DNA of 64,000 nt from contig OZ243974.1 of assembly GCA_965214775.1 (NCBI GenBank), positions 512,001 to 576,000 of the forward strand, written 5' to 3'. The number at the start of each line of letters is the position of its first letter. Position 1 is the stretch's first letter. The translations under genes and the position numbers were made by a program. The notes below the pieces were generated by a model, which worked only from the letters and a program-made list of their open reading frames with translations, made no database searches and was not told the DNA's origin. Origin of the DNA: Nitrosopumilus sp. GTDB lineage: Archaea > Thermoproteota > Nitrososphaeria > Nitrososphaerales > Nitrosopumilaceae. Positions 13,253 through 32,236 of the stretch are shown one piece after another.

Positions 13253-13301
13253 TACCTAAGGTTCTAGAATGGTTATATATAGCATCGACGCTTTTGCCCA
13301 C

Positions 13302-14389: not shown

Positions 14390-14396
14390 CTCCTCT

Positions 14397-14756: not shown

Positions 14757-15187
14757 TCACCAAACATTACGGCCAATCCGTACATCATTGCAACGGCAGC
14801 CAAGACTATGGCAGAATAGATGCCAATCTTGTGCCTGTAATTCTGTGAAGCGGGATCGTATGGATAGTCAGGTCTTGCTGGTTTTCCAACACCCACACCG
14901 CCATGGCCCAGCATGACCCTGATTCCGTTTACAGTATGAAAAACACACATTCCGATTACGGCTGCCAGCAAGATGTGTCCCTCAGTTGTCTGTGTCAGTT
15001 CAAGGAACTCGTCCCATCCAGCCCGTCCTCGCAGAATGTTGCTTGTTTCATAAATGTGGCCAATGAAATATGCCAGCAAGCCAAGTCCGCTCAGACGCAT
15101 CATCCAATAGGCCACACGCTCGATTCCATAACGCGTAGGATTGATCATTCCGCCGATGCCTTCCTTGTGTTCGTCGTCGGCAGTCAT
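14753..15187 (-). CDS. sdhC: Succinate dehydrogenase cytochrome b subunit
   Basis: RLSGLGL and FHTVNGIRV motifs, operon position. Confidence 0.85.
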   Translation of the reverse strand: MTADDEHKEGIGGMINPTRYGIERVAYWMMRLSGLGLLAYFIGHIYETSNILRGRAGWDEFLELTQTTEGHILLAAVIGMCVFHTVNGIRVMLGHGGVGVGKPARPDYPYDPASQNYRHKIGIYSAIVLAAVAMMYGLAVMFGE

Positions 15188-16899
15188 TAGTATTTCCTCT
15201 CCACTGGCTGATACTTTGTAATCGTAACGGGGAATGTCTTCATGATTGGTTCGTCAGGATCATAGTATGCAAGCGTGTGGTGTAAGAAGTTTGCGTCATC
15301 CCGCTTGGCATAATCGGTTCTGGCGTGTGCGCCGCGCGACTCCTTTCTGTTAATTGCACCCAAAAGAATGATTTCTGCGACCCTGAACATCGAGTCTAGC
15401 TCCATTACGTTTGAAAAGTTTGTGTTGTACTCTTTGGCTTTGTCATCAACGTGTCTCCAGGTTTGGGCTTTCAATTCACGAATCTTCCTCAGACCTTCGA
15501 CAAGGTCTCTTTCGTTCCTATAGACGTATGCCTTTTCGTTCATGGTATCTGTCAATGCCTGCCTGATTTCATACGGATTGGCATGGCCATTTCCACGAAA
15601 GATTCCATCATAGATTCTCTTTTCTTCGGCCATTACAAGATGGTGTGGCCATTGGGCAGACGGGATTCCTTTTTGAATGTACTCTACTGCCAGCTCCCCG
15701 GTAATCTTTCCCCATACAATGCACTCGGAGGTCGAATTTGCACCCAGGCGATTTGAGCCATGGACGCTGTTACATGCAGCCTCACCGGCAGCCCAGACCC
15801 CTTGAATTTCAGTGGCACCATCAATGTCAGTGTGCAATCCGCCCATCATATAGTGGCAGACAGGCCTAATGTCAAGCAATTCCTGTGCAGGATCAATTCC
15901 GGAAAATTTGATAGAGATTTCCCTAATGCCGCCGAGCTTTTCTTTGATTTTTTCATCTCCGACGTGGCGCAAGTCTAACTTCATGCAGTCAACCCCGGTT
16001 TCGTGTCTGAAACCCCTGCCTTCCTGAATTTCTGTCATAATTGATCTTGAAACAATGTCACGTGGTGCAAGCTCCATTTTTCCTGCCGCATAGTTTTTCA
16101 TGAATCGTTCTCCCTTGTTGTTTAGCAGATAGCCGCCTTCACCCCTGGCACCTTCCGTAATCAGAATTCCAGATGGCAGGATTCCAGTTGGATGAAACTG
16201 GACAAACTCCATATCCTTGAGGGCCATTCCAGCTCTTAATCCCATATCCAGTCCGTCAGGAGTTGAAGACAGCGCATATGTTGAAAAACTATACAGTCTT
16301 CCTGCACCGCCTGTTGCAATGATCAGTGCCCTTCCTTTGATGATGTAAAATGTGCCAGAGCCCAGCTCGATTGCAGTAAGTCCCATGAACCTTTTTCCAT
16401 CATGAACGATGGATGTTGCAAACCATTCGTTGAGGTACTCGATGTTTTCAAACTTTTGACAGGTGTCATACAATGTCTGCATTTCAAAGAATCCGACCTT
16501 GTCTGATGCATAGGTTGCCCTTGGGAAACTATAACCGCCAAAGTTTCTTTGATCAATCCTCCCGTCATCTCTTCTGGACCAGGGCATTCCCCAATGCTCT
16601 AGCTGATGAACCTCCTTTGGCATTTCGACACAGAGTCTTTTGGCTACGTCCTGGTCTGCAAGGAAATCACTGCCTTTTACAGTGTCATAGACATGGGATT
16701 CTATTGTGTCGCCCTCATCTTCAAAAAGAACAGCAGCTGTGCCGCCCTCTGCTGAGACCGAATGGGAACGCATAACCTGTAATTTTGAGACGATTCCAAT
16801 TTTGAGATTCGGCCCTTTCTTTGCTGCAGCAATTGCTGCACGAAGTCCAGCCAAGCCAGAGCCACAGATAATCAGATCAAAATCCAGCGAATCTACCAT
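15187..16899 (-). CDS. sdhA: Succinate dehydrogenase flavoprotein subunit
   Basis: GSGLAGL, RSHSVSAEGG, QFHPT, HGSNRLGANS and ESRGAHAR motifs. Confidence 0.97.
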   Translation of the reverse strand: MVDSLDFDLIICGSGLAGLRAAIAAAKKGPNLKIGIVSKLQVMRSHSVSAEGGTAAVLFEDEGDTIESHVYDTVKGSDFLADQDVAKRLCVEMPKEVHQLEHWGMPWSRRDDGRIDQRNFGGYSFPRATYASDKVGFFEMQTLYDTCQKFENIEYLNEWFATSIVHDGKRFMGLTAIELGSGTFYIIKGRALIIATGGAGRLYSFSTYALSSTPDGLDMGLRAGMALKDMEFVQFHPTGILPSGILITEGARGEGGYLLNNKGERFMKNYAAGKMELAPRDIVSRSIMTEIQEGRGFRHETGVDCMKLDLRHVGDEKIKEKLGGIREISIKFSGIDPAQELLDIRPVCHYMMGGLHTDIDGATEIQGVWAAGEAACNSVHGSNRLGANSTSECIVWGKITGELAVEYIQKGIPSAQWPHHLVMAEEKRIYDGIFRGNGHANPYEIRQALTDTMNEKAYVYRNERDLVEGLRKIRELKAQTWRHVDDKAKEYNTNFSNVMELDSMFRVAEIILLGAINRKESRGAHARTDYAKRDDANFLHHTLAYYDPDEPIMKTFPVTITKYQPVERKY

Positions 16900-16926
16900 T
16901 TTTCAGACAGACTTGCTTGGAGCGGG

Positions 16927-18211
16927 TTAAATATGTAGTAATAGCCAGGCATGATCCAAGATATGGCCCAAGTTCTGCCACTTATTCGGGTGATCCTGGG
17001 CGGTGCTACGGATCGGGTGGCCGCGTGATGGTTTGGATGCCATCTTCATCAGGCCCTCGATCCTGCTGATGACCGGCTCCATCCTTATGCCTGCCTGCTC
17101 GGCCGGGGTTCTCTCAGGAGACGAGTGCACCCTTACAAAGTCATGGTGGACCCTCATGGCATCTATGATCTTCTGTGATGACACGGGTATTCATCCCGCG
17201 CATCACCTTCACCCTGTCCCTCATGGTTCCATTGAGGCGCTCCACGCGAGAGTTCAGTCCCTCATGCCTTACGGAAACACTTCGGATGTTTTTTACTCGC
17301 GGGTTTCTTCTTGTAAAGTATTCCTTTTGAAACGCCTCATCATATGACGCCAGGCCATCATGTATTACCGCATGTGTCACTTTTGTTTTTGATTTTGCGT
17401 CTGCAAACACGGCTCTTGCATCTCTTATTTCCCTCCTTTGACTCACCACGCCACTTATCCAGAACCTCGTAGAATCATCCATAAAGTTCCACAACCACTG
17501 GTAATGCCCCTTGTCCATTGACTCGCGCCTTACGTGGACCACCATTTCGTCTACCTGGTACACTCCTCCTAAATTCGGAAGGGTCAGTGAGTCAACGAAC
17601 GGAGCTACGACTTCTGCAAACCTCTGGACCCACCTCAGCACGGAAACGTCTGATATTTTTATGCAGTAAAACTGCTTCACATGATCAGCTATCTTGCGTA
17701 ATGAGACCCCTTTGAAGTACAAGTCGATCGAGGCACAGATAATCTTTGAGTCCTTCTTAGAATTTACAAACCCAGCATTCACCACAAATCGGTAACCGCA
17801 GTTTTTACACAGGTATCTCTGGATCGTACCTTTTTTTGCGTGACGCTTGCCATTCTTAATTATGTCTCCCTGTTTGCAGTTCTCGCACTCTATCCTTTCT
17901 TCGGGAATTGCCAACACAACATCGTCTTGTTCAGCTACCTTTTTTCCAAGCTTTTTTGAGAACAGCACTGCACAGATGTGCTTGCACTGGATCTGCCGAC
18001 TCTTAAAGTCTGGGCAGCTGCAGGCCCATCTGCCATCCTTCCGCCCACCTAGGTTTCGTCCATACTCCTTTCTTACGTCGTACCACATATCGCTGCTAGA
18101 TTGTGACTTGACTGCATAACGCAGCTTGTTGATTTTCCTTATTGGATGATCTGCCGACGCAATCTCCATTCCGCGTACTTGTCTTTGCAACTCCTGTTTT
18201 GTTTGGTACAT
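16927..18211 (-). pseudogene. IS6-like DDE transposase with SWIM and Zn-ribbon domains, frameshifted near 17183
   Basis: SWIM CSCPDF...CKH; CENC...YLCKNC; YQVDE, IHDGL, NSRVERLNG; C-terminus (HHDFVRVHS...TPAEQAGI) continues in the 16927-17184 frame. Confidence 0.8.
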
Positions 18212-18271
18212 ACTATTGTATATACTTCAGTGTATATAAATTTTAATATACCTTGGTGTATACCAATGTGT

Positions 18272-18433
18272 ATGGTAAGCGAGTCTAACGTAAAAATCTA
18301 CAAGGTTGGATCTAGGCACAGCATCAACCTGCCCAGCGCGCTAGTTACGGACAGCTTGTTCCCGTTTGAGCCAAACGAGAATCTGATAATCAGGATAAAG
18401 GGCAAACAGCTGATCATCATGCGCTCAGAATAG
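18272..18433 (+). CDS. AbrB/MazE-like small DNA-binding protein, divergent from the transposase
   Basis: KIYKVGSRHSINLPSALV...FEPNENLIIRIKGKQLII pattern. Confidence 0.55.
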   Translation: MVSESNVKIYKVGSRHSINLPSALVTDSLFPFEPNENLIIRIKGKQLIIMRSE

Positions 18434-18470
18434 TGACCTGCAAGTCATAGTTTTATGAAATTATTGTACA

Positions 18471-18589
18471 AGTCTTCCCAAAAGTACCCCAAATGGTGGC
18501 TCCAAACTCGAAGCAATCCAAATCATCCCTGCATGCAGATCCGCATATAGCTGTTTGCATCACCCCTAGTCTAGTACATCTGGGAAGAC
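18471..18589. mobile_element. MITE family E, best-preserved copy with TIRs
   Basis: AGTCTTCCCAAAAGTAC...GTACATCTGGGAAGACT terminal inverted repeats. Confidence 0.7.
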
Positions 18590-18769
18590 TGTGTATGCTG
18601 ACAATCATAAATTCTTGAATGCCATCTACTGCCTGTAGGAATGTTTGATCATGAAATACTTCAAGAACTTTTGCTCGCCAGTATACGAGGTCACCTCTCC
18701 CTAATAATTAGGCGCGAATTGCATACCGTTGTGATTTTCATGCCAGTCAGTAAAGAACGCGACCGCGTA

Positions 18770-20338
18770 CTATGGTTTAACAAAATTCGCCGTATCATTT
18801 TCAATGGTTTTTATTTCATTATTGTTTTTAATTTTTTTAATTTCACCATAAATGTCAATGTCGTCTTTAATTTTTTTGCAAATTTCTTTACATTTTGTCA
18901 ACTCTGGTGTTTTTGTTCTAGTAATGCTAAAGTCTTTCACATATGGTTTTATCTTTTTAAATAAATCCGTATTTAAAAATTCCATCAAATATATCTCATA
19001 AATTAGAGCATCCAATACTTGATAGTCCAAATATGTTTTTTCTTGATCATTAGAGTATAATGTTTGTATTATGACAGTAATTTTTCCAACTATCTCTTGA
19101 TTCTCTTTTGCAGTTTCTTTTATTTTACATTTTGCTAATACTCCAATTGATTTAGTATGAAATTTTTTTTCATAATAGAATGTCATTAATCGTGAATTGA
19201 TTATTGCTAAAAGATATTCATACTCAAATTTGCTAGACGTAACGCATAATTGTTGAAATGTATTTGATAGTCTTGTTTCTGCTTTAGTAATCTGTATTCC
19301 ATACTTGTGTCTTATTTTTTGTAGATCTTTCCATTTGGTACCTGTAAACAGTGTGTTATCTGTAAAAAAATACCCATAATCTATTAAACCTACTAATGAC
19401 TTATTTGTAATTCTCCTAACTAATAGCTTGGTATGTTCAAAAACTTCTTTTATTCTTGGACGATGGTGTTCTTTTGGTTGATAATCTAACCATCTATGTT
19501 TTGAGGGTAAAAAGTATCTATCAATGTCTTTTCCTTCAATATATGGCAAAAAATTTTGTTTTTTATTATTAAACACATAATCTTCTTTTTTCTTTTTAAC
19601 ATTTTTTCCTGAGCCATGTTGCAGAATCATTCCTTGTTGACAATAAATTATGCTTTCTAGATCAACAGATTTTTTTTCAATCATATTAATGATCTTGTCA
19701 CTTTCTAAAGATCTTTTATCATTATATGTTAGATTAAGGTTTACTATGTGATTATGCTGTTTTAGAATAAATTGCTTATTTACTGTGATTTTTTTACTAG
19801 TGTCCCAATTCTCAAAAATGAATTCATAATCAGATGGATTATTCATAAGAAGAGTGATCACGGTATGTACACCAGCATTAGGGAATTTTCCCGTGTATGC
19901 TATACCCAAAATTGTAGTTTCATTAAATAAAAATTCTCTTAATGTGCTTGCAGATGCTGAATCTAGAATGCTATCTTCTGTTAGAAATCCAAAAAAACCC
20001 TTCTTTGCAAGCAATGATATTCCACGTTTCATAAATGCCCAGAACAGATCAAACCTTCCTTTCATGATGCTTTTATTTTTGTATGAGAATTGTTCTTTTA
20101 AGAGAGGTTTCAAACATGCGTCAATTTTCTTCACTTCTATGTAAGGAGGATTCCCAACAACAGCATCAAAACCTGGATTCTTTTTCCTTTTCCCATCATC
20201 ATTATGGAATATGTCCGGAAACTCCAGATCCCAGTGGAAGAACGAGTGCTTCTCTGCCACACGCTTGACCTCGGGCCACGTGCTGCCCTCGGCAAAAAAG
20301 TCAAGGCTGTTCTCGCCGATTTTTGCGACATAATCGCC
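18770..20338 (-). other. Silent alternative 3' half of the DNA methyltransferase (NPPY motif plus target-recognition region)
   Basis: Open frame with no motif I and no ATG start before NPPY; first 194 bp identical to 28636-28829 in the same reading frame, then a divergent AT-rich TRD-like region. Confidence 0.85.
20145..20338 (-). repeat. 194-bp inverted repeat, left copy
   Basis: Exact reverse complement of 28636-28829 by visual comparison. Confidence 0.95.
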
Positions 20339-20343
20339 AGAAT

Positions 20344-20982
20344 CTAGGAAAAGTATTGCGACAGATCCGACTGTCTTGCTTTACTCTTGCCCGTTTTTTT
20401 CGAATCCGATGTTGCATCATGAATTATTTCGACCAAACGTTTCTTGTACTGTTCTCTGCCTGGAAGCGAGTTTGTTCTTCCTAGTTTGTTAAGATATTTT
20501 TTTTCCTTCTCAAAGAGATCTAACTTCTTGAGCATCTTGTGCTTTCTTTTTAGTGCTCTGTAGTATGAAAAGTACACAGAATCAATAATCTCGCTTTTCT
20601 TGAAAATCTTGACCACGGCCATTAGATCGTGAATGTAGTCCTTGCTTAATCCAAAATCCCTGGACATAGCCTCATTGTAGTTTATAATTTCAAACTCGTC
20701 TTCTACCGATTCATTGAACGCATTAATCAGATTTCCCAGCTCCCAGTACAGGGAGCTTGGCAGATCCTGATATTTTTCCTCTTTTAGCGATGGTCCGTAG
20801 AATAACTTTTTTGCAGACTGCACCGTATAAAGATATAGTTTTTTGAACTTTTCGATCTTTTTCTCCAGTGTGTTGCTGCTGCCTACGTAATATGTAAAGT
20901 CAACCAGAACGCTTGTCTTCTTGGTGTTGTGCATGTCCTGTGTTTGTACTATGCGGATGGGTATTCTATCTGTCAAATCCAC
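20344..20982 (-). CDS. Hypothetical protein with DUF1016/YhcG N-terminal-like region
   Basis: SLYWELGNLI...MSRDFGLS...L...VKIF...YFSYYRAL resembles DUF1016_N; overlaps the ATPase gene. Confidence 0.5.
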   Translation of the reverse strand: MDLTDRIPIRIVQTQDMHNTKKTSVLVDFTYYVGSSNTLEKKIEKFKKLYLYTVQSAKKLFYGPSLKEEKYQDLPSSLYWELGNLINAFNESVEDEFEIINYNEAMSRDFGLSKDYIHDLMAVVKIFKKSEIIDSVYFSYYRALKRKHKMLKKLDLFEKEKKYLNKLGRTNSLPGREQYKKRLVEIIHDATSDSKKTGKSKARQSDLSQYFS

Positions 20983-22499
20983 ACCGCATGCAGTATTTTT
21001 TCAAACTTTTCGAGGGTCTCTATGGCATCCATTTCTATCTGATCATTTTTTGCTTTGATCAGGGATGAGATGACCACCCTAGTCAGATTATAGTCACGTA
21101 GTGAGGGGTTTTTGGATACGGATTGTGAGAATGGATGTCCTATGTTGTACACTACCGCCCTGTTTTGGACATCAACCCACCCCTCACGTGGATCATCTGG
21201 GAAGTCCTCCGGGATTATGTAGATTCCTCTTGTTTTTCTGGTTTTATTTACTCCCTTTTTGTCGGCTTTGTCGTCTTGGTATGTTCCCGTTCCATGATCA
21301 TCGCCGCTAGGAGATTTTGTAGACTGGGAGTCGTTATCTGTCCTTTCACCCTCAGTCTCGCCTGTCTTGGGAGCTTGTTTCCCCGGGCCCTCGTTGATGG
21401 TAATATCCCCCTCTTCTCTTGCAACAGATATGTCATGCTCGCGCGGATTTGAAAATGGGTTTAGGAACTTTAGCTCCGGATTCTGTAGTATCTTGTCTAG
21501 TCTTTTGGTAAGCTCGTTTACAACTATGTTTGTTTTCGAGGTGATGTCTTCATGTTTGAAGATCAGTTTTCTTTTTTCTAATTCACTATACAATCTTTTA
21601 CTTACTTGGCCTCTGATTTTGTTGGTTTGAAAATTCTTCTTAAAGTTCTCCTTGTTGGCAACCAGATGTGCGGCAAGAATCGATACGTCTGCCATGCAAA
21701 GAATTTTTTTACTGTTGTCCTCTTTTATCAGATTAGCCCATTCTACCAGTTCATTTTTTATTCTTTTTCCAAATACTGAGTATACGATATGGCGCCGGTC
21801 TTCGGGAATTTCGTCTTTACATATCCATATGTGGCATGGTATGTAGCTGTTTGCAACCTTTATTTTTACGTGTATACTTTCCCCTGAAGGTTGCCAAGGC
21901 ATGATAGGTCTGTCATCTACGGATAACTCTAATTTCTTTGAAAGCAATGCGTCATTGAACCAGAATCGCAACTTTTCAGATATGTTCTCCTGCAGCCAGA
22001 TGTATCCCTCTGGGCTTACTTTGACCCTGTACGATGTTCCGTATTTGTGATCTAGCTTTCTATTTCCGGTTATCTGAGTGATTGAGCCACCATTCAAGCT
22101 GGAATCATATTGGACATCATCCCCTGCTCTGAACATTCTAGAAGCTAAAATGTCGCTGTTTTTGCCAGTAATTGTAATAATTTCTGCCTGATCCCATGCG
22201 GCTAGAAATATTTTTGCGCCAACGCCTGCAAATCCAATGCCCTCGCCTTTTGTTTTTGTAGATGATGAGATTGTGTGATATCTCTCAAAGTCAACTGGCT
22301 TCATGGGTGGCCCATCGTTTAGAAATACGATGTAACAGTTGGAGTCATTACGGACAAGATTGATTTTGATTTTTTTTGCCTTGGCATCAATGCCATTTGC
22401 GATGGCTTCTAAAACAAGAACTTCCTCTTTTGGGTATTCATACATGTCAAGCAAGTTGTTTAACGTTTCAAGTATTTTGATCTTAAGCTGTTCAGTCAA
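20973..22499 (-). CDS. GHKL (MORC/Hsp90-like) ATPase
   Basis: EAIANGIDA, NDGPPM and STK...IGFAGVGAK Bergerat-fold motifs. Confidence 0.8.
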   Translation of the reverse strand: MTEQLKIKILETLNNLLDMYEYPKEEVLVLEAIANGIDAKAKKIKINLVRNDSNCYIVFLNDGPPMKPVDFERYHTISSSTKTKGEGIGFAGVGAKIFLAAWDQAEIITITGKNSDILASRMFRAGDDVQYDSSLNGGSITQITGNRKLDHKYGTSYRVKVSPEGYIWLQENISEKLRFWFNDALLSKKLELSVDDRPIMPWQPSGESIHVKIKVANSYIPCHIWICKDEIPEDRRHIVYSVFGKRIKNELVEWANLIKEDNSKKILCMADVSILAAHLVANKENFKKNFQTNKIRGQVSKRLYSELEKRKLIFKHEDITSKTNIVVNELTKRLDKILQNPELKFLNPFSNPREHDISVAREEGDITINEGPGKQAPKTGETEGERTDNDSQSTKSPSGDDHGTGTYQDDKADKKGVNKTRKTRGIYIIPEDFPDDPREGWVDVQNRAVVYNIGHPFSQSVSKNPSLRDYNLTRVVISSLIKAKNDQIEMDAIETLEKFEKILHAVWI

Positions 22500-22504
22500 C
22501 TGTG

Positions 22505-23446
22505 TTAGCTGTCCGGTTTGGAATAATATGTTTTATGAAATGTTACACTGGCATCAAGATGCCGGTACATGTCAAGCAGCTCTTCCACGGTGTATCTGTT
22601 GTACTGCCCCATGTAAAACTCATGCCCTGCAAGGATATGCCCTAATCCGAACTGTATTCGGTTGGCCTTTGTTATGAAATATGCACGCAGGCTGTGCACG
22701 TGTATCGTGTACCTATTCTGCTTGCAATGATCATATTTTTTCAGCATGCCGGTTTTTTTCCTTGCAGCCGCAAAACGCTTGGTCACAAGGTTACTGAACT
22801 GATCTGATCTTCTACGTCCTGCAAAGACATAATCCGATGCTTTTCCTATGTCTATCCTGTACCGGATCATACTCGATACTTGTTTTGAGAAGAATGTGAC
22901 ACGTGATCTTCCGGTCTTTGTTATGGATGCAGGTATTCTTACCGCTATGTTTTCATGTGCAAGATCAAGATTGGAAATCCTTATTTGTCCAAGCTCCCCC
23001 ACTCGCATTCCGCTAGATACAAGCGCCAGAAGATGAAATCTGAGCTCCGGTCGGGATGCTTCAAGAATGTTTTCCATGATCTCAGGCGTGATGGGCAGCT
23101 GGCTCTCACGTAGCAGTTTTGGAAACTTCAAATTTTGTTTTATGCCTACTGGATCAAGCTTTATCCCGTTGTACCACAAATATGATCTTAATGAGTTAAA
23201 GTAACACCTTATGCTTGAGGAAGCAATCCCACGTCCCACATTCCATTCTATCCACTCCTGAAGAAATGGGTAGATATCCTCTTCATTGTAGTGAGACAGA
23301 TCCTGGGCGTCTATCCCGAATGCGCGAACGTTGTTCACTGTACATTGAAATAGTTTCTGTGTTTGTTCTGATCTCATTTTCAATGTAGACATATAACTTG
23401 ACAGTGTCTTGTGTTTGGTACCACGCGGCGTATACAAAACCATCAT
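22505..23446 (-). CDS. Tyrosine recombinase (intact)
   Basis: SSGMRVGEL, TKTGRSR, HSLR and LAGH...QY give the full R-K-H-R-H-Y catalytic set. Confidence 0.88.
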   Translation of the reverse strand: MMVLYTPRGTKHKTLSSYMSTLKMRSEQTQKLFQCTVNNVRAFGIDAQDLSHYNEEDIYPFLQEWIEWNVGRGIASSSIRCYFNSLRSYLWYNGIKLDPVGIKQNLKFPKLLRESQLPITPEIMENILEASRPELRFHLLALVSSGMRVGELGQIRISNLDLAHENIAVRIPASITKTGRSRVTFFSKQVSSMIRYRIDIGKASDYVFAGRRRSDQFSNLVTKRFAAARKKTGMLKKYDHCKQNRYTIHVHSLRAYFITKANRIQFGLGHILAGHEFYMGQYNRYTVEELLDMYRHLDASVTFHKTYYSKPDS

Positions 23447-23606
23447 GTAAGATTTTTAAAACTGCTATATTACAGAAGATGTGAACAAAACGCAATTCAT
23501 GCATTTCAAACCATAGTCATGTTGTATTTTATCTTGATCGTGGAAAATTAAACACAGTCCAATCGTCACCTTTATCTTGAGGCCTTGATCATCACCACAC
23601 AACAGG

Positions 23607-26600
23607 ATGCTACGAGAAGACAACGTGATTGACAACAAAAACGTAGTTCTAAAAGAAGAACTGTTAAAGATCTTGCCAAAGACCAAAAATGCAAGCATTG
23701 CTGTAGGGTATTTTTTTATATCTGGACTATCAGCTGTGGTGGAGTCATTACAGGGTGTTGACAAAGTTCGCCTGCTCATATCAAACACCACAGATAAGGC
23801 GACTGCAGAATCACTCATTGAGGGATTTCACAGTATTAACCAGGTAAACAGGGAGCTCGGAAGGCAAAGTCACGTGAACGACGACAGAAGGGACAGAATT
23901 CGGGACGATTCAAAAAACAACATCAAAAAATCACTGGAATACATGAGTCAGACAAGCGGCGACAAAAAGACAGTCATGCTTCTCATAGAGATGATGAAGA
24001 CAAGCCAGATGGAGGTGCGTGTCTATCCAAAAGAAAAGCTGCACGCAAAGGCCTACATATTTCAGCCAAGAGACACCGACTTTGCACAAGGGCTAGGTAT
24101 AGTGGGATCCAGCAACCTGTCCCTTGCGGGAATATCCCATAACAGCGAGCTGAACCTCAAGACATTCAATGCTCCAGATGTCAACCAACTTTTGAGTTGG
24201 TTTGATGAGTTATGGGAAGAGGGATTGGATTTTACTGAAGACTTTAACATACTGTTGTCAGAATCGTGGGCAGGAACAACATATTCTCCTCGGGATGTGT
24301 TTCTCAAGGCCGCATACTTGGAGTACAAGGACAGATTGGAAGACCAGCATGAGATCGATCCGATCTGGGGTACAACGTTTCCGCAACTATTCCCGTTCCA
24401 GAGAAACGCCGTGGATCAGTGTCTTACGATGATCGAGTCCTATGGAGGGGTGATAATCGGAGATGTGGTGGGCCTAGGAAAGACATATGTTGGAACCGCA
24501 CTGCTAAAATACCTGCAGCTGCAAGATTACCGCCCGCTGATAATCTGCCCACCGCCACTTGAGCCAATGTGGGAAAAGTTCTGCGTAGATTATGAGGTTG
24601 ATGCAAAGATACTCTCACGAGGAAAACTGTCCCAGGACAGCTTTGAACTATATCAGGACTACAGATACAAAGATCGTGACTTGGTACTACTAGATGAAAG
24701 CCACCATTTTCGAAACAACGACTCACGACAATATGAGAATCTACAGCAATTCACACAGGCCCGCGATGCCAAAGTCATACTACTTACTGCAACGCCGTTT
24801 TCCAACGAAGCCAAGGACATCAAGAATCAGATAATGCTGTTCCACCAGTCCGAAAAGACACAGATACCGCCTGCGAACGAAACTGATCTCAACAGATATT
24901 TCGTCACGGTAAAAAAGGGAGAGGCCGATCTGGTGGATCTGCTTCGACACATCATGATCAGGCGAACACGGCGATATGTACTCAAACAATGGGGAGACAC
25001 GGATGAAAACGGGAGGGATTTCCTAAAAGTCGGAGATCAGGACAAGTATTTTCCCAGCCGTAAGATGAAAACACAAAGATACGACATAAACAAAGTTTAC
25101 CAGAACAAGTATGAAACAATCCTAGAATGTCTTCAGCGAGGCGAGCTTACATTTGCCAGATACAGCATTGGACTGTACGTAAAAGACGAATACACGGACG
25201 TTGAGTTGTACAAGGAGCTTGGAGCAGCTGGAACAAAACTCATAGGACTGATCAGGACGATTCTGCTGAAAAGAATGGAAAGCAGTCTTGAGGCGTTTCA
25301 GGAAAGCATTGCCCACTATATAAAAACCCACGAGATCTTTCTTAAACTGCTAGAGGAAAAAATCATCCCCATAGGTGATGTCTCCTACAAATCAATACAC
25401 GATCTCATAGAATCAGACTCAGATTACAGTACCATATATGATCCTGAGACAATAGATGAGTTTCGCAAAAAGATCGAAAAGGCTGGAGAAACAAAATACA
25501 AGTTTGAAGCATTCAAAATAGAGGAACTGACTCGGGACATCGAAAACGACATCAAGATCTTTAACACGATTGATGGCCTGATTCACAGGCTGTCATACAA
25601 GACGGATGACAAACTAAAGAAATTACAGGAATTGCTGGATAAAGAATATGTCGGTAAGAAGGTTCTGATTTTTTCCGAGTTTACAACCACGGCACGATAT
25701 CTGGACAAGCACCTGAAATGGAAAGGCCACAAGGAACAGGTTGATTCTACCACAGGCAACATGATTCAATGTGCAAGAAGGTTCGACCCCGACAACAACC
25801 CAAGCAGTGAAAAAAGGCCCGACAAGTCAGAGGAGATCTCACTGCTTATATCAACAGATGTCCTGTCAGAGGGGGTAAACCTCCAGGCAGGACAGGTAAT
25901 CATCAACTATGACTTTCACTGGAACCCTACCAGACTCATTCAAAGGGCAGGACGAGTGGACAGAATAGGAAGCAAGAACGAATTTGTCACTGTACACAAC
26001 TTTCTTTTGGATCCAGATATGGAGAAGGACTTTAGGTTGGAAGAGCATGTAGACCGGAAAATAGACAGCATACAGCAAAAAATCGGCGAGGACTATCCAA
26101 TATTAAAGCCGGGTGAACCGGTAAACACAAAAGACACTTACGCAATCTACAAAGGCGATGTGTCCATTCTTGATCACGAAGAGGAAAATCCACTAGAGCC
26201 CTCAAGGTTTGAAAAAATGTTAACGGATGTACAAATGAACAGCCCGCAGTTATGGGAAGATTTCACATCGATTCCAGACGGAATCAGAGGTTCTGACGGG
26301 ACAGAAACTGGAGGTGTGCTGCTCTTGGCATGTGAGAGCGGGACAGAAAGAAGCGGCAAGGTGAGAAAATACTATCTTGTCACACCAAACGAAAAAGTAA
26401 ACGAGATATCCTCACAGAAAGCACTGGAAATTCTAGAATCGGAGGACAAATCAACACATGCCACCCCTTCAAGTCACGACAGCCTGGTCGCTGCAGGATG
26501 GCGCCAATTCGTGGAGGAATCAGAGCAGATCAGGGCAAGAGCCTCAAGCACAAAACTAACCAGGCCACAAAAATGGATACGTGAAAAACTAATGAAGATG

Positions 26601-26858
26601 GACAAAAACGATACGTTTACGGATAAAAGGCAAGAGATTGAAACTCTGCTAAAGGCATACTCTATCCCAATCCTCAAGGGAAAACTAAACAGAGAATTGA
26701 CAAAGATTACAAAAGCAGGCATGGAAGACATGGAGATATTGGGCAGCCTTAGTCAGCTGTACCTGCATTACAACCTGCAAAACCAGGTAAGACAGGATGA
26801 GGAGGAGGCAACATCCCCCAGAATCCTATACAGCATGTACGTTGGGAAACATGACTGA
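23607..26858 (+). CDS. PLD-nuclease / SNF2-type helicase fusion (putative restriction subunit)
   Basis: LHAKAY...GSSNLS (PLD); DVVGLGKT, DESH, LTATP, SEGVNLQ and QRAGRVDRIG helicase motifs; overlaps MTase start. Confidence 0.88.
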   Translation: MLREDNVIDNKNVVLKEELLKILPKTKNASIAVGYFFISGLSAVVESLQGVDKVRLLISNTTDKATAESLIEGFHSINQVNRELGRQSHVNDDRRDRIRDDSKNNIKKSLEYMSQTSGDKKTVMLLIEMMKTSQMEVRVYPKEKLHAKAYIFQPRDTDFAQGLGIVGSSNLSLAGISHNSELNLKTFNAPDVNQLLSWFDELWEEGLDFTEDFNILLSESWAGTTYSPRDVFLKAAYLEYKDRLEDQHEIDPIWGTTFPQLFPFQRNAVDQCLTMIESYGGVIIGDVVGLGKTYVGTALLKYLQLQDYRPLIICPPPLEPMWEKFCVDYEVDAKILSRGKLSQDSFELYQDYRYKDRDLVLLDESHHFRNNDSRQYENLQQFTQARDAKVILLTATPFSNEAKDIKNQIMLFHQSEKTQIPPANETDLNRYFVTVKKGEADLVDLLRHIMIRRTRRYVLKQWGDTDENGRDFLKVGDQDKYFPSRKMKTQRYDINKVYQNKYETILECLQRGELTFARYSIGLYVKDEYTDVELYKELGAAGTKLIGLIRTILLKRMESSLEAFQESIAHYIKTHEIFLKLLEEKIIPIGDVSYKSIHDLIESDSDYSTIYDPETIDEFRKKIEKAGETKYKFEAFKIEELTRDIENDIKIFNTIDGLIHRLSYKTDDKLKKLQELLDKEYVGKKVLIFSEFTTTARYLDKHLKWKGHKEQVDSTTGNMIQCARRFDPDNNPSSEKRPDKSEEISLLISTDVLSEGVNLQAGQVIINYDFHWNPTRLIQRAGRVDRIGSKNEFVTVHNFLLDPDMEKDFRLEEHVDRKIDSIQQKIGEDYPILKPGEPVNTKDTYAIYKGDVSILDHEEENPLEPSRFEKMLTDVQMNSPQLWEDFTSIPDGIRGSDGTETGGVLLLACESGTERSGKVRKYYLVTPNEKVNEISSQKALEILESEDKSTHATPSSHDSLVAAGWRQFVEESEQIRARASSTKLTRPQKWIREKLMKMDKNDTFTDKRQEIETLLKAYSIPILKGKLNRELTKITKAGMEDMEILGSLSQLYLHYNLQNQVRQDEEEATSPRILYSMYVGKHD

Positions 26859-29800
26859 CAAAAAACTAGAAAGTTTGGCATATCGACTCAGGGATCTGAC
26901 CTCGTTAAGAGATCTTTTTTCAGAACTGAACTTTGATTTTGAGGACAAGCCAGTGAATAAAGACAGCTGGAAGCAAGATCAGAAAGATAAGGTCACAGAA
27001 GCCAGGGTCATAGCGAGCAAAAACAACTATCAGATATGCTATATCAGAACAAACACAAACTCATTAAAGGATTGGAAGGGCATATCATCCCGAATAATCA
27101 AGGACAATTCTGGACTATGTATGGTGTGCTCGCACAATCCTGACGGGTTTAAGTGGGTCTTTTCAAGCCTGTCAAAAAACTTTTCACAGTCCTTTTCAGA
27201 GACCAGACACGTTCCAATAGACATCACCGGGGATTCCGGTGTGCCCAAAACCTTCATCGATTTTTTGGAGGCGCTAAAAATCAAGGGAAAGTCCACCACC
27301 ACATCCATCACCACCCAGATATCCAACGCATTTGACTCGTTCGCAGTACAGATTCACGACGAGCTTACCGTAAACGTGTTCGAGGCGTTGAAGATCCTCT
27401 CTGAAGGGATAATTCTGGACGAGTCCAACGAAATGCAGTTGGATGAACAGCTACTCGAGGAAATCCGAGAACCGGTATTCATTTTGTTATACAGGATCAT
27501 CTTCGTATTGTACGCAGATGACAGGGGAATTTTTCCAATCGACAACAGCACCTATCATGACGAGTTTAGCCTGAAATGGATCAAGCACGAGTGGTTGCTA
27601 AAGGGGCAGGATCCAAAAAAGATAGACGAATACGGTGTCCAGGAACGCTTGTGGCGACTGTTCAGACTGATCGAGTACGGCAGTGAGGATCTAGGATACA
27701 ACCCCGACAAGCTTTTCATGAAGCCCTACTATGGAAGGCTGTTTGACAGGCAGATCCATTCAAGACTGGAAAAATACAAAATAAAAAACCAGTATTTGCT
27801 GGAAGCCATCGGCCTGCTTACGCGCACACGTGACAAAAAGGGGAACTATTTTTTCCTCGATTATTCGGCACTGGAAACAAGACACCTTGGTTCCATATAT
27901 GAGCGCCTTCTGGAATACCATCTTACGGTCAAAGACAAAAAGATCGCGGAGCTTCCAAATCCAAAAGACCGGAAGGCATCAGGCAGTTACTATACCCCCC
28001 AGTACATCGTGGATTACATCGTGGAAAACACAGTAGGTCCGCTAATAGACCACATCATAAAGACGACCGCCGAACCTGACGAGCAGGTTGAAAAGATATT
28101 GGACTTGAATGTTTTGGATCCTGCAATGGGTTCTGGCCATTTCCTGGTGGGAGTTACAGACTACATTGCACGGAGGATATGTGAAATAGAGTTTACTGGG
28201 GAGATACCCGAGCAGGTGTTTGTGGAGCGCAAAAGAGACGTGGCCAGGCGGTGTATCTATGGCGTAGATCTAAACCCATTAGCGGTGGATCTGGCCCATG
28301 TTTCCCTGTGGCTTGAGACGCTTTCATCTGAAAAGCCACTATCTTTTCTGAGTGCACACCTAAAAACAGGTAATTCGTTAGTTGGTGCCAACATAGACGA
28401 CATATTTGCAAAACAGACAACACTGATGGAGTCGGCAAAGGGCAGAACGCAGTTCAAGAAAACTGTCAGGGACTTTATCATGCTTGAACAGCTTGAGGAC
28501 GATACTGCAGCTGCAGTAAAGACAAAGATGGCAAAGTACAAAAAAATTCAATCAAAGGGAACCATATACTATCAGCTGAAATTTTTACTGGATGCCAAGG
28601 TGGCAAAAAACTTCGGCGTGGAAGTTCCACCGTTAGGCGATTATGTCGCAAAAATCGGCGAGAACAGCCTTGACTTTTTTGCCGAGGGCAGCACGTGGCC
28701 CGAGGTCAAGCGTGTGGCAGAGAAGCACTCGTTCTTCCACTGGGATCTGGAGTTTCCGGACATATTCCATAATGATGATGGGAAAAGGAAAAAGAATCCA
28801 GGTTTTGATGCTGTTGTTGGGAATCCTCCATATGGAGCGAAGATATCAAAACATGAACAGAAATACTATAAAGAGAGATTCTCAAAGGTAGGAAGTACTG
28901 ACACGGCACAATTAATGATGCGTGCATCCTTTGACCTGCTATCCAAATTTGGAATCAATGGATTTATCGTTCCCAAGGCACTTACATTTGCATCAAATTG
29001 GAAAAAAATTAGAATGCATCTGATGACAAATTTATCAACACTGATAGATTGTAAAAAAGTGTGGAAGGACGTAAAACTTGAGCAGGTTATTTACATATAT
29101 CAAAACAGTCATACAAGAGAATCCTATCTTACTGGATCACGAATAAAGCATGATCTTATTGCAATCACAAAAATCGACAAGAACGAATGTACGATGTTTG
29201 AATTTTTGATTAGTGGGCTTGAACGAAACGAGATCACAGTGGGACAGAAAATACATGCAAAATCTGAGAAATTAGGAAAATATATTACCAACAATAGAGG
29301 ATGTATGCTACAAAATAAGATCAGAGAAAACGGCGAAGTGAAAGTAATTGGCGGTGCACAGATCCAACGATATTACATCACAAAGGAATTGAAAGGATAT
29401 CTAAATGCCAGAGACATTAACGATAACAAAGCATATATCCAAAAAAACTCGATTCTCGCACAAAATATTGTTGCACATGTTGAAAATCCAGTAGATCATC
29501 TAAAGATTACTGCAACAATACCACACAATGCCAGATTTATTGTATTAGACACAATAAACCAAATCACGGTAAACATGATCGACCCATATTATATCTTGGG
29601 GTTTTTAAATTCAAAAATATTAAACTGGTATGTATACAGATTTATCTTTGCCAAGGCAATTAGAACCATGCACTTTGATAGTACAGTAACAGATAGAATT
29701 CCAATTATTATAGACAAGAAAGAACAGGTAATTAAAAGGGTAAAAAATCTAATTCGGCTACATACAAAGCCTTCAACACTTCAAAGAGACAAAGACATAT

Positions 29801-29895
29801 TGACCGAAGAAGATGAACTAAACCGTTTGTTTTATCACATATTTGGCTTGACAGATGATGAAATCAGAATGATAGAGAGTTCAACTCCGTCTTAA
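26851..29895 (+). CDS. Eco57I/type IIG-like N6-adenine DNA methyltransferase with C-terminal TRD
   Basis: GSYYTP, LDPAMGSGHFL (motif I), YGVDLN and GNPPY (motif IV); AT-rich 3' third. Confidence 0.92.
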   Translation: MTDKKLESLAYRLRDLTSLRDLFSELNFDFEDKPVNKDSWKQDQKDKVTEARVIASKNNYQICYIRTNTNSLKDWKGISSRIIKDNSGLCMVCSHNPDGFKWVFSSLSKNFSQSFSETRHVPIDITGDSGVPKTFIDFLEALKIKGKSTTTSITTQISNAFDSFAVQIHDELTVNVFEALKILSEGIILDESNEMQLDEQLLEEIREPVFILLYRIIFVLYADDRGIFPIDNSTYHDEFSLKWIKHEWLLKGQDPKKIDEYGVQERLWRLFRLIEYGSEDLGYNPDKLFMKPYYGRLFDRQIHSRLEKYKIKNQYLLEAIGLLTRTRDKKGNYFFLDYSALETRHLGSIYERLLEYHLTVKDKKIAELPNPKDRKASGSYYTPQYIVDYIVENTVGPLIDHIIKTTAEPDEQVEKILDLNVLDPAMGSGHFLVGVTDYIARRICEIEFTGEIPEQVFVERKRDVARRCIYGVDLNPLAVDLAHVSLWLETLSSEKPLSFLSAHLKTGNSLVGANIDDIFAKQTTLMESAKGRTQFKKTVRDFIMLEQLEDDTAAAVKTKMAKYKKIQSKGTIYYQLKFLLDAKVAKNFGVEVPPLGDYVAKIGENSLDFFAEGSTWPEVKRVAEKHSFFHWDLEFPDIFHNDDGKRKKNPGFDAVVGNPPYGAKISKHEQKYYKERFSKVGSTDTAQLMMRASFDLLSKFGINGFIVPKALTFASNWKKIRMHLMTNLSTLIDCKKVWKDVKLEQVIYIYQNSHTRESYLTGSRIKHDLIAITKIDKNECTMFEFLISGLERNEITVGQKIHAKSEKLGKYITNNRGCMLQNKIRENGEVKVIGGAQIQRYYITKELKGYLNARDINDNKAYIQKNSILAQNIVAHVENPVDHLKITATIPHNARFIVLDTINQITVNMIDPYYILGFLNSKILNWYVYRFIFAKAIRTMHFDSTVTDRIPIIIDKKEQVIKRVKNLIRLHTKPSTLQRDKDILTEEDELNRLFYHIFGLTDDEIRMIESSTPS
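28636..28829 (+). repeat. 194-bp inverted repeat, right copy (inside the MTase gene, ending at NPP)
   Basis: Exact reverse complement of 20145-20338. Confidence 0.95.
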
Positions 29896-30327
29896 TTGAC
29901 ATGGTTAATACTCAGATGTCACACCACACAGCTTTGGCCAGCAATATGCATCGACATCCCGGATAATTGAACTGCAAAAGTTAGCACTTCAAGATCTTGG
30001 TGAAAATGTCCATCCAATAGGCCCAGTAATCTTGACAGATCATGCAGATCTGAAAGTATGAAGTCACGTCACTTACTGGCTAGACATCTAGTTAAAACAT
30101 CCGTCCACAACACGGTGATGATCCTTGCTTCTAATCCGTGCCGAATCAGACTGACCGTACTTTATAACTAACGTTGGCAATCAAGCAAATTCATGCCTAG
30201 TTGGTAAGGGGAAGCGATCACATATGCCTACGACCACCCGATCCGTAGCACCGCCTACGACCACCCGAATAAGTAGCAGAGCTTTGATCCATAATCTTAA
30301 AATATGTCACTAGTGATATCGCTAGTG

Positions 30328-30837
30328 ATGATTTCTGAATGGTTCCAAAGAGTCGGAAGTTCAGTTCCAAGAGGATTTTCCAGATATTTCATTTTGGAAC
30401 TATTGAAAAAGAAATCACATTCAGGAAAAGAGATCATAGACTATGCCGCAGAACAAAGTAACGGAATCTGGAAGCCGTCACCGGGATTGATCTATCCGCT
30501 ATTGGGAAGGCTGCTTGATGAAGGATTGATTGAGGAGGACTCGGACAGAAAATATCAACTAACCAAGAAAGGAAGGAAGACTGCAGAAGATGTCGGCAAA
30601 GTAAATGATATTGTAAAAAATCAACTAGATGTTCTCTTCAGACTAGGCAATGTGGGAAGGTTTGTCGCAATGGATCTAATTGAAAAGATCTCCTCGATGG
30701 GTGCAATCCTAAGTTCAAACATAAGCAACATGACTGGACATGAGACAAAAAAATACAAAGACTTCCTAGAGTCCGAATTAAAGAAGATTCAGGGAAAGAA
30801 AGTCAAAGCAAAAGGCAGGCAAATAAAGATCGACTAA
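30328..30837 (+). CDS. PadR-family transcriptional regulator
   Basis: FILELL...HSGKEI...WKPSPGLIYPLLGRLLDEGLI...YQLTKKG. Confidence 0.88.
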   Translation: MISEWFQRVGSSVPRGFSRYFILELLKKKSHSGKEIIDYAAEQSNGIWKPSPGLIYPLLGRLLDEGLIEEDSDRKYQLTKKGRKTAEDVGKVNDIVKNQLDVLFRLGNVGRFVAMDLIEKISSMGAILSSNISNMTGHETKKYKDFLESELKKIQGKKVKAKGRQIKID

Positions 30838-30865
30838 CAGCAGTTTGGAAAAAACAACACATATC

Positions 30866-30976
30866 GTAACAGGTCGGGCTCTGAAAGCTGTTCCTGATTT
30901 TAGGCACGAATCTACACGGGAGACCTCCCCGAGATAACAAAACTCGCACTTGAACTTCCAGAGCCCGACCTGTTAC
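30866..30976. other. Intergenic element closed by an 18-bp perfect stem (candidate structured RNA)
   Basis: GTAACAGGTCGGGCTCTG (30866-30883) pairs with CAGAGCCCGACCTGTTAC (30959-30976). Confidence 0.5.
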
Positions 30977-31048
30977 CACATATCTCTCCCTCTCTCCCCC
31001 CCCAAGTCTTAAAATCATAAATAACTAATCCAGTCATGGAAAAGCAGA

Positions 31049-31912
31049 ATGAGAAATTTAAAAAAAATGCTGAGAACAGGAAAGCCCCTAGTCATACCCG
31101 GAGTCTATGATGCCTTGGGGGCAAAAATTGCTCAAAAAGTAGGCTTTGAGGCAATGTTTCAGACAGGATACGGGACTTCGGCTGCATTATTTGGAATGCC
31201 AGACTATGGGTTTGTCGGGGCAGCAGAAACTGTGGATAATGCAAGACGAATTTGCAGGGCAGTCTCAGTTCCAGTAATTGTAGATTCAGATACAGGATAC
31301 GGAAATGCCCTTGGTGTTTGGAAGCTAGTCAAGGAATTGGAGTCTGCAGGCGCATCAGGAATGTTTTTAGAAGATCAAAGGTGGCCAAAAAGATGCGGAC
31401 ACATGCAAGGAAAAGAGGTAGTATCTCAAGAAGAATATACGGAAAAATTATCCGCCGCAATTGATGCGCGAGAAAGCAAGGACTTCATTGTTGTTGCAAG
31501 AACCGATGCAAGAGCTACTGAGGGATTGGATGCAGCAATTGAAAGGGGAAGGCAAAATAAAAAGACAGGTGCAGATGCAGTCTTTGTCGAAGCGCCAAGG
31601 TCAATCGAGGAGATGAAAAAAATCGGAAGGGAGATCAACGCGCCGCTTGTTGCAAACATGATCGAGGGAGGGGCAACACCGTTGAGTTCCGCAGAAACTC
31701 TAAACAAGATGGGTTTCAAGATAATTCTCTATCCGTTGTCAGTGCTATATGCAAATACATTTGCAACAATGAGCATACTTGCAGAGTTAAAAAAATCCGG
31801 AACGACAACGAAATCCAGGCAAAAGGTTGTAAATTTTGATCAGTTCAATGATCTTGTAGAGTTGCCAAGGTTTAGAAAAATGGAAGAAAAGTACGGATCC
31901 TCGAAAATATAG
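31049..31912 (+). CDS. Isocitrate lyase/PEP mutase family enzyme (2-methylisocitrate lyase-like)
   Basis: VDSDTGYG, EDQ..PKRCGH, VARTDA and FVEAP motifs. Confidence 0.9.
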   Translation: MRNLKKMLRTGKPLVIPGVYDALGAKIAQKVGFEAMFQTGYGTSAALFGMPDYGFVGAAETVDNARRICRAVSVPVIVDSDTGYGNALGVWKLVKELESAGASGMFLEDQRWPKRCGHMQGKEVVSQEEYTEKLSAAIDARESKDFIVVARTDARATEGLDAAIERGRQNKKTGADAVFVEAPRSIEEMKKIGREINAPLVANMIEGGATPLSSAETLNKMGFKIILYPLSVLYANTFATMSILAELKKSGTTTKSRQKVVNFDQFNDLVELPRFRKMEEKYGSSKI

Positions 31913-31948
31913 TGAATGAGTAAATAAAAAATTTCAAGTAAAGTGCAG

Positions 31949-32236
31949 TTATGCTGCGTTTCTCTTTACTTCAATTTCTATTGTTGAAACATTTCTGGTT
32001 CTGCCGTCTTGTGACTCTAAAGATTCTGAGCCAATGCTAATACTTCCGATAGAGTAACCGGCATTTTCTGTTTTGCGTGCAATGATTTGAGCTACGTCTA
32101 CAGCACGTCCAATGCTGAGTCCTCTAGCTTTGATGTTGACGGCAGGCAAGTTTGCCAATTGAATCAATGTTGATGTAACATATGCCATCAATGGCTTCTT
32201 ACCGATGAATATGGTGTCTCTTGCTTCGGTTGACAT
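31949..32236 (-). CDS. albA: Archaeal chromatin protein Alba
   Basis: IFIGKKPLMAYV...IKARG.SIGRAVDVA...VSTIEI. Confidence 0.93.
   Translation of the reverse strand: MSTEARDTIFIGKKPLMAYVTSTLIQLANLPAVNIKARGLSIGRAVDVAQIIARKTENAGYSIGSISIGSESLESQDGRTRNVSTIEIEVKRNAA

Follow-up and report, generated by a model that had tools for sequence, protein, structure and literature searches.

A probable two-state inversion switch in a restriction-modification-like defence locus of Nitrosopumilus

Phase-variable restriction-modification is a major source of population heterogeneity in bacteria and of bet-hedging in their defence against phages. Ammonia-oxidising archaea are abundant nitrifiers, and to our knowledge their viruses and defences are poorly known. 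The locus described here lies in a 64,000-nucleotide (nt) stretch of DNA from Nitrosopumilus sp. (assembly GCA_965214775.1, contig OZ243974.1, positions 512,001 to 576,000 of the forward strand), referred to below as the window, in which positions are counted from the first letter. It comprises a predicted adenine methyltransferase gene, a second, silent C-terminal half for that gene, an inverted repeat shared by the two and, between the repeat arms, genes for a predicted tyrosine recombinase and a nuclease-helicase. The locus is probably a two-state cassette switch, in which a restriction-modification-like defence system would change by inversion.

Gene-altering programmed inversions have been confirmed by long reads in bacteria, where 11 target Type II restriction-modification enzymes (Milman et al. 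2023, PMC9881135). The targets include genes resembling DrmMI of DISARM (defence island system associated with restriction-modification), PglX of BREX (bacteriophage exclusion) and homologs of C. jejuni Cj0031; at two loci of the last kind (CP083813.1 and CP044495.1, Table 3 of that paper) the adjacent coding sequence carries phospholipase D (PLD) and SNF helicase domains (PMC9881135). These Cj0031-type loci share with the Nitrosopumilus locus the pairing of a PLD+SNF2 protein with an Eco57I-type methylase, repeats inside the methylase coding sequence and a neighbouring recombinase, such genes being enriched nearby in the bacterial cases, for which coexisting variants were seen in long reads. 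They differ in being bacterial; the archaeal proteins described here are 28-39% identical to most of 80 metagenome relatives.

The BREX type 1 gene pglX of Lacticaseibacillus rhamnosus (NC_013198.1) likewise encodes an N6-adenine methylase of the same broad class, with repeats inside the coding sequence and a recombinase in the locus, and its variants were also seen in long reads (PMC9881135). However, that system has six genes, and its variable region lies in the middle of PglX, where two inversions keep both termini constant (PMC9881135), whereas here a single inversion would exchange the whole C-terminal part. BREX type 1 was ruled out for the present locus: the methyltransferase scores 85.3 against a cut-off of 500 with BREX_1_MTaseX, and neither BrxC nor PglZ occurs among the seven proteins of the island in which the locus lies. 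Among sequences of solved structures, the methyltransferase gives weak matches to BREX PglX/BrxX chains (E 2e-6 to 2e-5, residues 670-747).

The SpnIII hsdS shufflon of S. pneumoniae with PsrA (PMC4948785, PMC7096588) resembles the locus in having a tyrosine recombinase, repeats within specificity-coding sequence, and one expressed copy beside silent, start-less copies; in that system methylation and restriction specificity change (PMC4948785, PMC7096588). It differs in that a separate S subunit is shuffled and the M and R subunits remain untouched, whereas here the part of the catalytic domain that follows motif IV would be exchanged and the target recognition domain (TRD) is carried on the methylase itself.

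Class 1 DISARM (DrmA, DrmB, the PLD protein DrmC, the SNF2 protein DrmD, and DrmMI) shares several parts with the locus. In PADLOC searches DrmMI is the best match of the methylase (2e-69) and the helicase resembles DrmD (3.3e-33); a PLD domain also occurs, but here it is fused with SNF2 in one protein. This system was also ruled out, because none of the seven island proteins is recognised by PADLOC as a dedicated DrmA or DrmB and the NCBIfam DrmD model scores 125.3, its cut-off being 610; the helicase matches a DrmA model more weakly (5.6e-17), below its DrmD matches. Judged by these family models, the system is apparently built of DISARM- and BREX-like parts and is a member of neither.

Archaea have figured little in this literature. 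The survey of gene-altering inversions describes a scan of bacteria only (PMC9881135). The PhaVa survey covers 42 archaeal long-read sets, 36 from Euryarchaeota and six from Crenarchaeota, in a preprint whose text calls chromosomal invertons 'only minimally investigated in Archaea' (Chanin et al., bioRxiv 10.1101/2023.03.11.532203). The word 'inversion' is absent from a survey of integrated elements in Thaumarchaeota (PMC6563490), and the passages found in a 2026 review of prokaryotic methyltransferases mention no archaeal invertible methylase (PMC13076061). A literature search, outside which supplementary candidate tables fell, returned no paper joining Thaumarchaeota, Nitrosopumilus or ammonia-oxidising archaea with inversion or with phase-variable methylases. 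The initial annotation was aware of no description of this architecture in Thaumarchaeota. Its novelty stands for the archaeal lineage and for details of the layout, but not for the principle, which is known and long-read-confirmed in bacteria (PMC9881135). What is new is an archaeal, lineage-conserved case of a principle for which bacteria have already furnished proof. The case stands out in that the exchange point falls at motif IV and the head of the operon lies between the arms; it also has a dedicated recombinase clade and, in one genome, a candidate second tier.

The inverted repeat and the genes it joins

A repeat search of the window identified a 197-nt inverted repeat with 99% complementary arms at 20142-20338 (distal arm, read on the minus strand) and 28636-28832 (proximal arm, on the plus strand inside the methyltransferase gene), separated by a spacer of 8297 nt. 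Alignment of the arms gives a perfect core of 194 identical bases (28636-28829 versus 20145-20338), as the initial annotation had claimed. The sole mismatch after this core is the third base of the last proline codon, and identity breaks off sharply at either side. The genome, assembled as a single contig of 2,833,656 bases, contains exactly two copies of the repeat, and the origin of such a repeat by chance is impossible. The peptide GDYVAK...GFDAVVGNPP can be read in frame from either arm, that is, in the silent-cassette frame and in the methyltransferase gene, and ends at motif IV (NPP) on both, in agreement with the coding first read from it. A partial third copy of the repeat start at 29165-29184 (20 nt, 17 of 20 bases) was dropped, being at the estimated chance level.

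The proximal arm sits within a plus-strand open reading frame (ORF) at 26851-29895 that encodes a methyltransferase of 1014 amino acids (aa); its start was placed at 26851 because the family consensus opens with MxDKKLE. The distal arm belongs to a minus-strand frame at 18770-20338, which is open over 522 codons and was initially described as start-less. This description was borne out: the frame lacks a start codon both at the repeat and upstream of it, where a TAA stands 15 codons away, and the first GTG, at 20260, falls within the repeat. Since both arms are in frame, recombination within the repeat must yield an in-frame fusion of 1117 aa, and the arithmetic first proposed (1117 aa recombined versus 1014 aa at present) holds. 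Past the repeat, the expressed and silent C-terminal halves hardly resemble each other, and GC content falls to 0.25-0.32 at 18800-20199 and 0.33-0.36 at 28800-29799, against 0.40-0.48 in the surroundings; the divergence and AT-richness noted for both C-termini were thus recovered. As in the definition of gene-altering programmed inversions by Milman et al. (2023), inverted repeats overlap coding sequence and the partner copy adjoins an alternative coding sequence.

The constant N-terminal part of the methyltransferase (26851-28635, plus strand) consists of a region of about 390 aa followed by motif I (DPAMGSGHF), and is 67-86% identical in five other genomes. No Pfam family matches residues 1-389. 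The currently expressed C-terminal half (28833-29895, plus strand) holds the last residue of motif IV (GNPPY), the rest of the Eco57I-type domain and TaqI_C. Pfam matches to the protein include Eco57I (5.4e-24; 85.6 bits, cut-off 25.3), N6_Mtase (55.4 versus a cut-off of 20.4) and MmeI_Mtase; TaqI_C in the expressed half is marginally under its cut-off (26.4 versus 26.5). On these matches and motifs, the plus-strand ORF is predicted to be a gamma-class N6-adenine DNA methyltransferase of the Eco57I/N6_Mtase type with a TaqI_C specificity domain. Its PADLOC matches to REase_MTase_IIG (best 8.5e-35), the label of type IIG enzymes with nuclease and methylase on one polypeptide, span only the methylase part (residues 354-789), and the candidate nuclease is the separate PLD-SNF2 protein described below.

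The unique part of the silent half (18770-20141, minus strand) has no start of its own and encodes the rest of an Eco57I-type catalytic domain plus TaqI_C (silent half: Eco57I 5.1e-23; TaqI_C 3.8e-13, 50.2 bits versus 26.5). The specificity domain is therefore part of what would be swapped, as first suggested, but the unit exchanged is larger than a TRD: by the Pfam assignments it contains everything after motif IV, that is, the remaining catalytic domain together with TaqI_C. At 27.8% GC, the unique part runs through 456 sense codons before its stop. None of 20000 shuffles of it was free of stops (mean 42 stops), and the remaining five frames contain 18-59 stops each. A frame that cannot be translated in place yet is open can be kept so only if used at times; the silent cassette is thus under selection. 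It is also 50-52% identical to the C-terminal parts of two full-length database proteins, P0071 (1116 aa) and P0039 (1127 aa), the match starting directly after NPPY. By this likeness the silent half is a usable module, apparently in use in other family members.

Two further genes of the system lie between the arms, as initially annotated. The first, a minus-strand ORF of 313 aa (22505-23446), matches the Pfam family Phage_integrase (PF00589; 1.5e-15, 57.9 bits versus a cut-off of 27.1). R148, H251, R254, H275 and Y282 are invariant across four aligned recombinases, and we take them to be the catalytic R...HxxR...H...Y residues of tyrosine recombinases. The ORF is accordingly annotated as a predicted tyrosine site-specific recombinase and is the candidate invertase. 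Identity with archaeal XerA, the chromosome dimer resolvase, was ruled out (NF040815, 70.2 versus a cut-off of 220). The genome has one copy of the recombinase gene, which diverges from the helicase gene.

The second, at 23607-26858 on the plus strand, encodes a PLD(HKD)-SNF2 nuclease-helicase of 1083 aa with Pfam matches to PLDc_2 (8.6e-10; 39 bits versus a cut-off of 27), SNF2-rel_dom (3.7e-11; 43.1 versus 24.9) and Helicase_C (8.1e-19; 68.3 versus 23.5). The motifs HAK...GSSN, GLGKT, DESHH and QRAGRVDR are readable in it. Its best PADLOC model is 'HKD+Snf2' (C3a139; 4.9e-70, residues 6-835), it falls under the cut-off of the NCBIfam equivalog 'phospholipD_antiphage' (151 versus 1100), and among sequences of solved structures it matches generic SNF2 remodellers. 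The protein is presumed to be the restriction or translocase subunit. Its gene overlaps the methylase start by 8 nt at the 3' end. The divergent intergenic region (23447-23606) separates the minus-strand row that opens with the recombinase from the helicase-methylase operon and, from its position, presumably holds the promoters of both, which would flip with the segment. A 117-aa ORF without family match (23465-23818, minus strand) overlaps the helicase start and is probably not a gene.

Related loci and their cassettes

The methylase family was found in six of 401 species-representative genomes drawn at class level and in seven of 401 drawn at family level, own genome included in both; the seventh adds a 163-residue fragment to the same six. 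The six full loci compared are that of the window and five others, designated L030, L031, L040, L039 and L041. Four of the six, namely the window locus, L030, L031 and L040 (the last three from other members of the same genus), have the layout of a switch, in which a silent C-terminal half in inverted orientation is followed by a recombinase gene, a PLD-SNF2 gene divergent from it and the methylase gene. The inverted repeat is 190-197 nt long and located at the same codons in all four, with identities between arms of 99% in the window, 100% in L030, 82% in L031 and 93% in L040. In L039 and L041, the repeat, the silent cassette and the recombinase are all absent from the DNA examined, while the N-terminal part of the L039 methylase is 86% identical to that of the window.

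The recombinase follows the repeat in its distribution. Whole-genome searches (E<=1e-20) identified an ortholog in all three other switch-bearing genomes and in neither of the two repeat-less ones, both of which are about 96% complete; the orthologs of L030 and L031 are 63% and 58% identical to the recombinase of the window. When the arms are aligned, they are 100% identical within the genome of the window and 99% within that of L030, and 75-80% identical between genomes, and the bounds of the repeat are equal in all aligned genomes (start GD(Y/F), end NPP). This pattern indicates that the repeat arms evolve in concert in two of the three genomes aligned, L031 being the exception.

Locus L031 contains a second set of similar parts. 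Its methylase gene is directly followed by another tyrosine recombinase gene (13599-14519), whose product shares 25% identity with the first, and the last 265 methylase residues have a counterpart in a second inverted cassette, which is 67% identical overall with the first 78 residues identical. The second repeat measures 236 nt at 99% identity, and the region 12585-15603 holds four repeat blocks of 99-236 nt that are 77-99% complementary. A second tier of switching is possible at this locus.

A decayed relic of the system was found in a further genome, G036 (L123, G036:C2:1531500-1551000). At 6057-9974, this locus retains the helicase up to residue 409, the repeat peptide and a recombinase divided between two frames, and the N-terminal part of the methylase is missing; the recombinase is thus linked to a helicase fragment and the repeat even here. 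A search with the whole methylase in 60 relatives gave weak matches and one 96-aa fragment in G036, which belongs to the relic.

Database proteins point to cassettes changing place. Proteins of at most 600 aa found with the silent half were compared with full-length members, with minima of 60% identity and 200 residues for a match. Nineteen such orphans match full-length members, and 18 of the 19 matches start at residues 586-616, the repeat boundary. The expressed half of the window methylase itself shows 64.6% identity to the silent cassette of L031 and 85.6% to P0147, an orphan of 418 aa from a contig equal in size to the one that encodes the family member P0016. The 120 best database relatives include four pairs in which the N-terminal parts are 98.9% (one pair) or 97.5-98.2% (three pairs) identical and the C-terminal parts show no detectable similarity. 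In one of them, P0017 and P0020 are 98.9% identical over 659 aa, and identity ends exactly at NPP, which is followed by W in one protein and Y in the other. P0154, which from equal contig sizes probably lies on the P0020 contig, is 86.6% identical to the expressed C-terminal part of P0017. A reciprocal match is absent: P0160, assigned to the P0017 contig in the same way, matches P0020 only across the repeat region. Overall, these comparisons indicate that cassettes have been exchanged between expressed and silent positions across genomes.

Several observations on relatives may be recorded beside these. Five database calls of 599-634 aa (P0065, P0068, P0069, P0092 and P0095) correspond to the N-terminal 58-62% of the methylase at 67-74% identity and end near the repeat; the contig of P0092 is equal in size to that of P0151, a 553-aa C-terminal orphan. 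The five may be split or interrupted genes, or may come from assemblies broken at the repeat. Locus L043 has two same-strand copies of the repeat peptide (5263-5454 and 8668-8859, 58% and 55% identical to that of the window), the second of which may mark a direct rather than inverted cassette, or a paralog. The 16-kb contig of L039 ends in a perfect 55-nt inverted repeat (1-55 and 16033-16087), possibly an assembly feature, and a 95-nt inverted repeat of 83% identity (2491-2585 and 11238-11332) brackets its helicase-methylase pair. The latter was compared with the repeat that flanks the island of the window, considered as its possible kin, and is unrelated.

The proposed switch and rival explanations

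The proposed system consists of two genes, one for the PLD-SNF2 nuclease-helicase and one for a gamma-class N6-adenine methyltransferase that carries its own specificity domain. The methyltransferase gene and its promoter-less, start-less spare C-terminal half point apart and are joined by the repeat, the end of which coincides with catalytic motif IV. If the two arms recombined, 20339-28635 (about 8.3 kb) would be inverted, a segment that comprises the recombinase row, the helicase gene with the intergenic region 23447-23606 before it, and the first 595 methylase codons. After the flip, the same N-terminal part would be continued in frame by the other C-terminal half, giving the protein of 1117 aa instead of that of 1014 aa, and the half previously in use would turn into the silent copy. 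Since the presumed promoter region moves with the segment, expression of the operon is expected in both states.

In gamma-class enzymes with a TRD of their own, the TRD sets the recognised motif. The C-terminal lobe of the catalytic domain would travel with its specificity domain. Each C-terminal half carries a different TaqI_C-type domain, so that the two states should, by analogy, recognise and methylate different DNA motifs, and the PLD-SNF2 protein would restrict sites left unmodified by the current methylase. The likely catalyst is the tyrosine recombinase encoded in the segment, and we infer that inversion would occur in living cells at a useful rate. The two-state inversion put forward in the initial annotation is supported by the layout in four of six loci, the distribution of the recombinase, the concerted arms, the open silent cassette and the exchange of cassettes.

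Several observations weigh against this interpretation. The stretch is contained in four public sequencing runs, all from one study and from at most three samples, which were searched as k-mer contigs (Logan); one Hi-C run that also came up is unrelated. The run contigs end at the repeat edges (20174/20309 and 28665/28800) and none bridges an arm; a two-copy inverted repeat yields one and the same de Bruijn graph whichever way the segment lies, so that the run result is neutral on orientation. No read, contig or genome of a relative among those examined shows the locus flipped; of the two things that relatives had been expected to reveal, other C-terminal cassettes were found and the opposite orientation of this locus was not. 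Nor does the 5.8-billion-protein collection contain any protein more than 69% identical to the methylase, and the alternative fusion of this strain is unrecorded. Cassettes match across genomes at 60-88%, not near 100%, and therefore speak for exchange over evolutionary time rather than for a flip caught in the act. The arms of L031, at 82% identity, resemble each other no more than they do those of other genomes, and the primary switch of that locus may be inactive.

A metagenome scan, made with generic patterns from a 48-sequence alignment, kept 80 loci, of which 76 are distant (28-39% identity) and four closer (46-59%). None of the 80 has an inverted repeat of at least 50 nt touching the methylase, and none has a recombinase ortholog, a single match of 29% occurring in L108. 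Among the four closer loci, L046 is without the helicase, and the other three extend only 216-1084 nt upstream of it and cannot show a cassette. Taken as a whole, the metagenome scan is neutral on the switch, neither for nor against it.

The rival that survives best accepts the inversion and assigns it to general homologous recombination on the repeat, with the tyrosine recombinase a leftover island integrase or a protein of other role. At 190-197 nt and near-perfect identity the arms are long enough for homologous recombination without any recombinase, a further point against a recombinase-driven switch. The island also bears marks of mobility, namely a transposase (17141-18211) and a flanking inverted repeat of 55-68 nt, and recombination at pneumococcal spnIII is reported to be independent of all known site-specific recombinases of the species (PMC6620402). 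However, a recombinase ortholog occupies the same place, within the segment and divergent from the helicase, in all four switch loci, and whole-genome searches did not find it in the two repeat-less family members. It is still linked in the decayed relic, L031 pairs its second cassette with a second recombinase, and the protein scores well under the curated XerA cut-off (70 versus 220 bits). General homologous recombination is accordingly improbable, and the encoded recombinase is clearly more likely as the catalyst.

Less probable still is a reading in which the distal fragment is dead, left over from a methylase gene that was duplicated or displaced, and the repeat is the scar of a recent duplication, with no programmed switching. 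Such a remnant would fit the single orientation on record, and decay is known in the family, from the 82% identical arms of L031 and from the G036 relic with its truncated helicase and frameshifted recombinase. It fits poorly with 456 AT-rich codons free of stops, with identity that ends at the same codon in four genomes, with arms homogenised within genomes while diverging between them, and with the recurrence of the cassettes as orphans that share 60-88% identity with the expressed halves found in other members. We consider this explanation distinctly unlikely.

Misassembly of the repeat, raised at the outset as a possible refutation, has a negligible probability, because, although repeats can collapse or duplicate in assembly and short-read graphs cannot order the four flanks, a separate 194-nt repeat contig stands at about twice the flank depth in three of the four independent runs (35.3 versus 17, 131 versus 70, and 192 versus 90-103), all four flanks are present at single depth, and the same design recurs in three other genomes, two of them single-contig assemblies. 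The doubled depth therefore indicates that the repeat is truly two-copy in independent data. In the same runs, contigs of all four branch with several loose ends at 18648-18685, just past the 3' end of the silent cassette; this branching reflects either a repeat of about 37 nt common to other places or organisms, or strain heterogeneity.

A broader reading, which we rate as only slightly on the probable side, joins these results. In marine and other ammonia-oxidising archaea of this genus, a lineage-specific invertase family would be dedicated to PLD-SNF2/methylase defence and would make clonal populations heterogeneous in methylome and restriction specificity. Exchange would take place at motif IV, half of the catalytic fold co-varying with the specificity domain; L031 would have stacked a second switch on the TRD tail, for four or more states; and the system would, as far as the literature searched shows, be the first gene-altering programmed inversion system characterised in the phylum. 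If this is true, the methylomes and restriction barriers of ammonia-oxidising archaea can vary from cell to cell, which would open a way to study virus-host dynamics in a nitrifier abundant worldwide. Such a switch, conserved and equipped with a recombinase of its own, would also offer a compact archaeal recombinase/site pair for testing. For annotation, the locus advises caution: in these genomes, a single switchable gene may lie behind both 'orphan' C-terminal methylase halves and truncated N-terminal calls.

Accessory genes and island surroundings

Downstream of the recombinase, the minus-strand row continues with a GHKL-type ATPase (HATPase_c_3; 20973-22499; Pfam PF13589, 2.7e-10) and ends with a 212-aa ORF (20344-20982), which stops 5 nt short of the repeat and has no match in Pfam, PADLOC or NCBIfam. 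Homologs of the two (30% and 37% identity) are located side by side in L040 at 13104-15315, outside the invertible segment there, and the pair was not detected in the L030 or L031 loci. Thus, the ATPase is an accessory gene, not conserved across all switch loci, and together with the 212-aa ORF it may form an accessory defence module.

The locus lies in a 13.3-kb island bracketed by an inverted repeat of about 55-68 nt (16958-17023 and 30231-30296; 24 nt at 96%, extending at about 88%). A third copy of this flanking repeat, 81% identical, is located at G000:C1:2590329-2590382. The single opposite-strand joint among the run contigs, from 18000 to 30234, considered as an inversion, was rejected, as it represents the left copy of the flanking repeat matching the right copy. 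An Rfam search of 15000-32000 (E<=0.1) gave no match. The island also encodes a DDE transposase (17141-18211, minus strand), of which the genome has a single copy. Each copy of the flanking repeat in the window lies just upstream of an outward-reading gene (sdhA-like on one side, PadR on the other), and the repeat could represent either the ends of a cargo-carrying transposon or a shared regulatory element.

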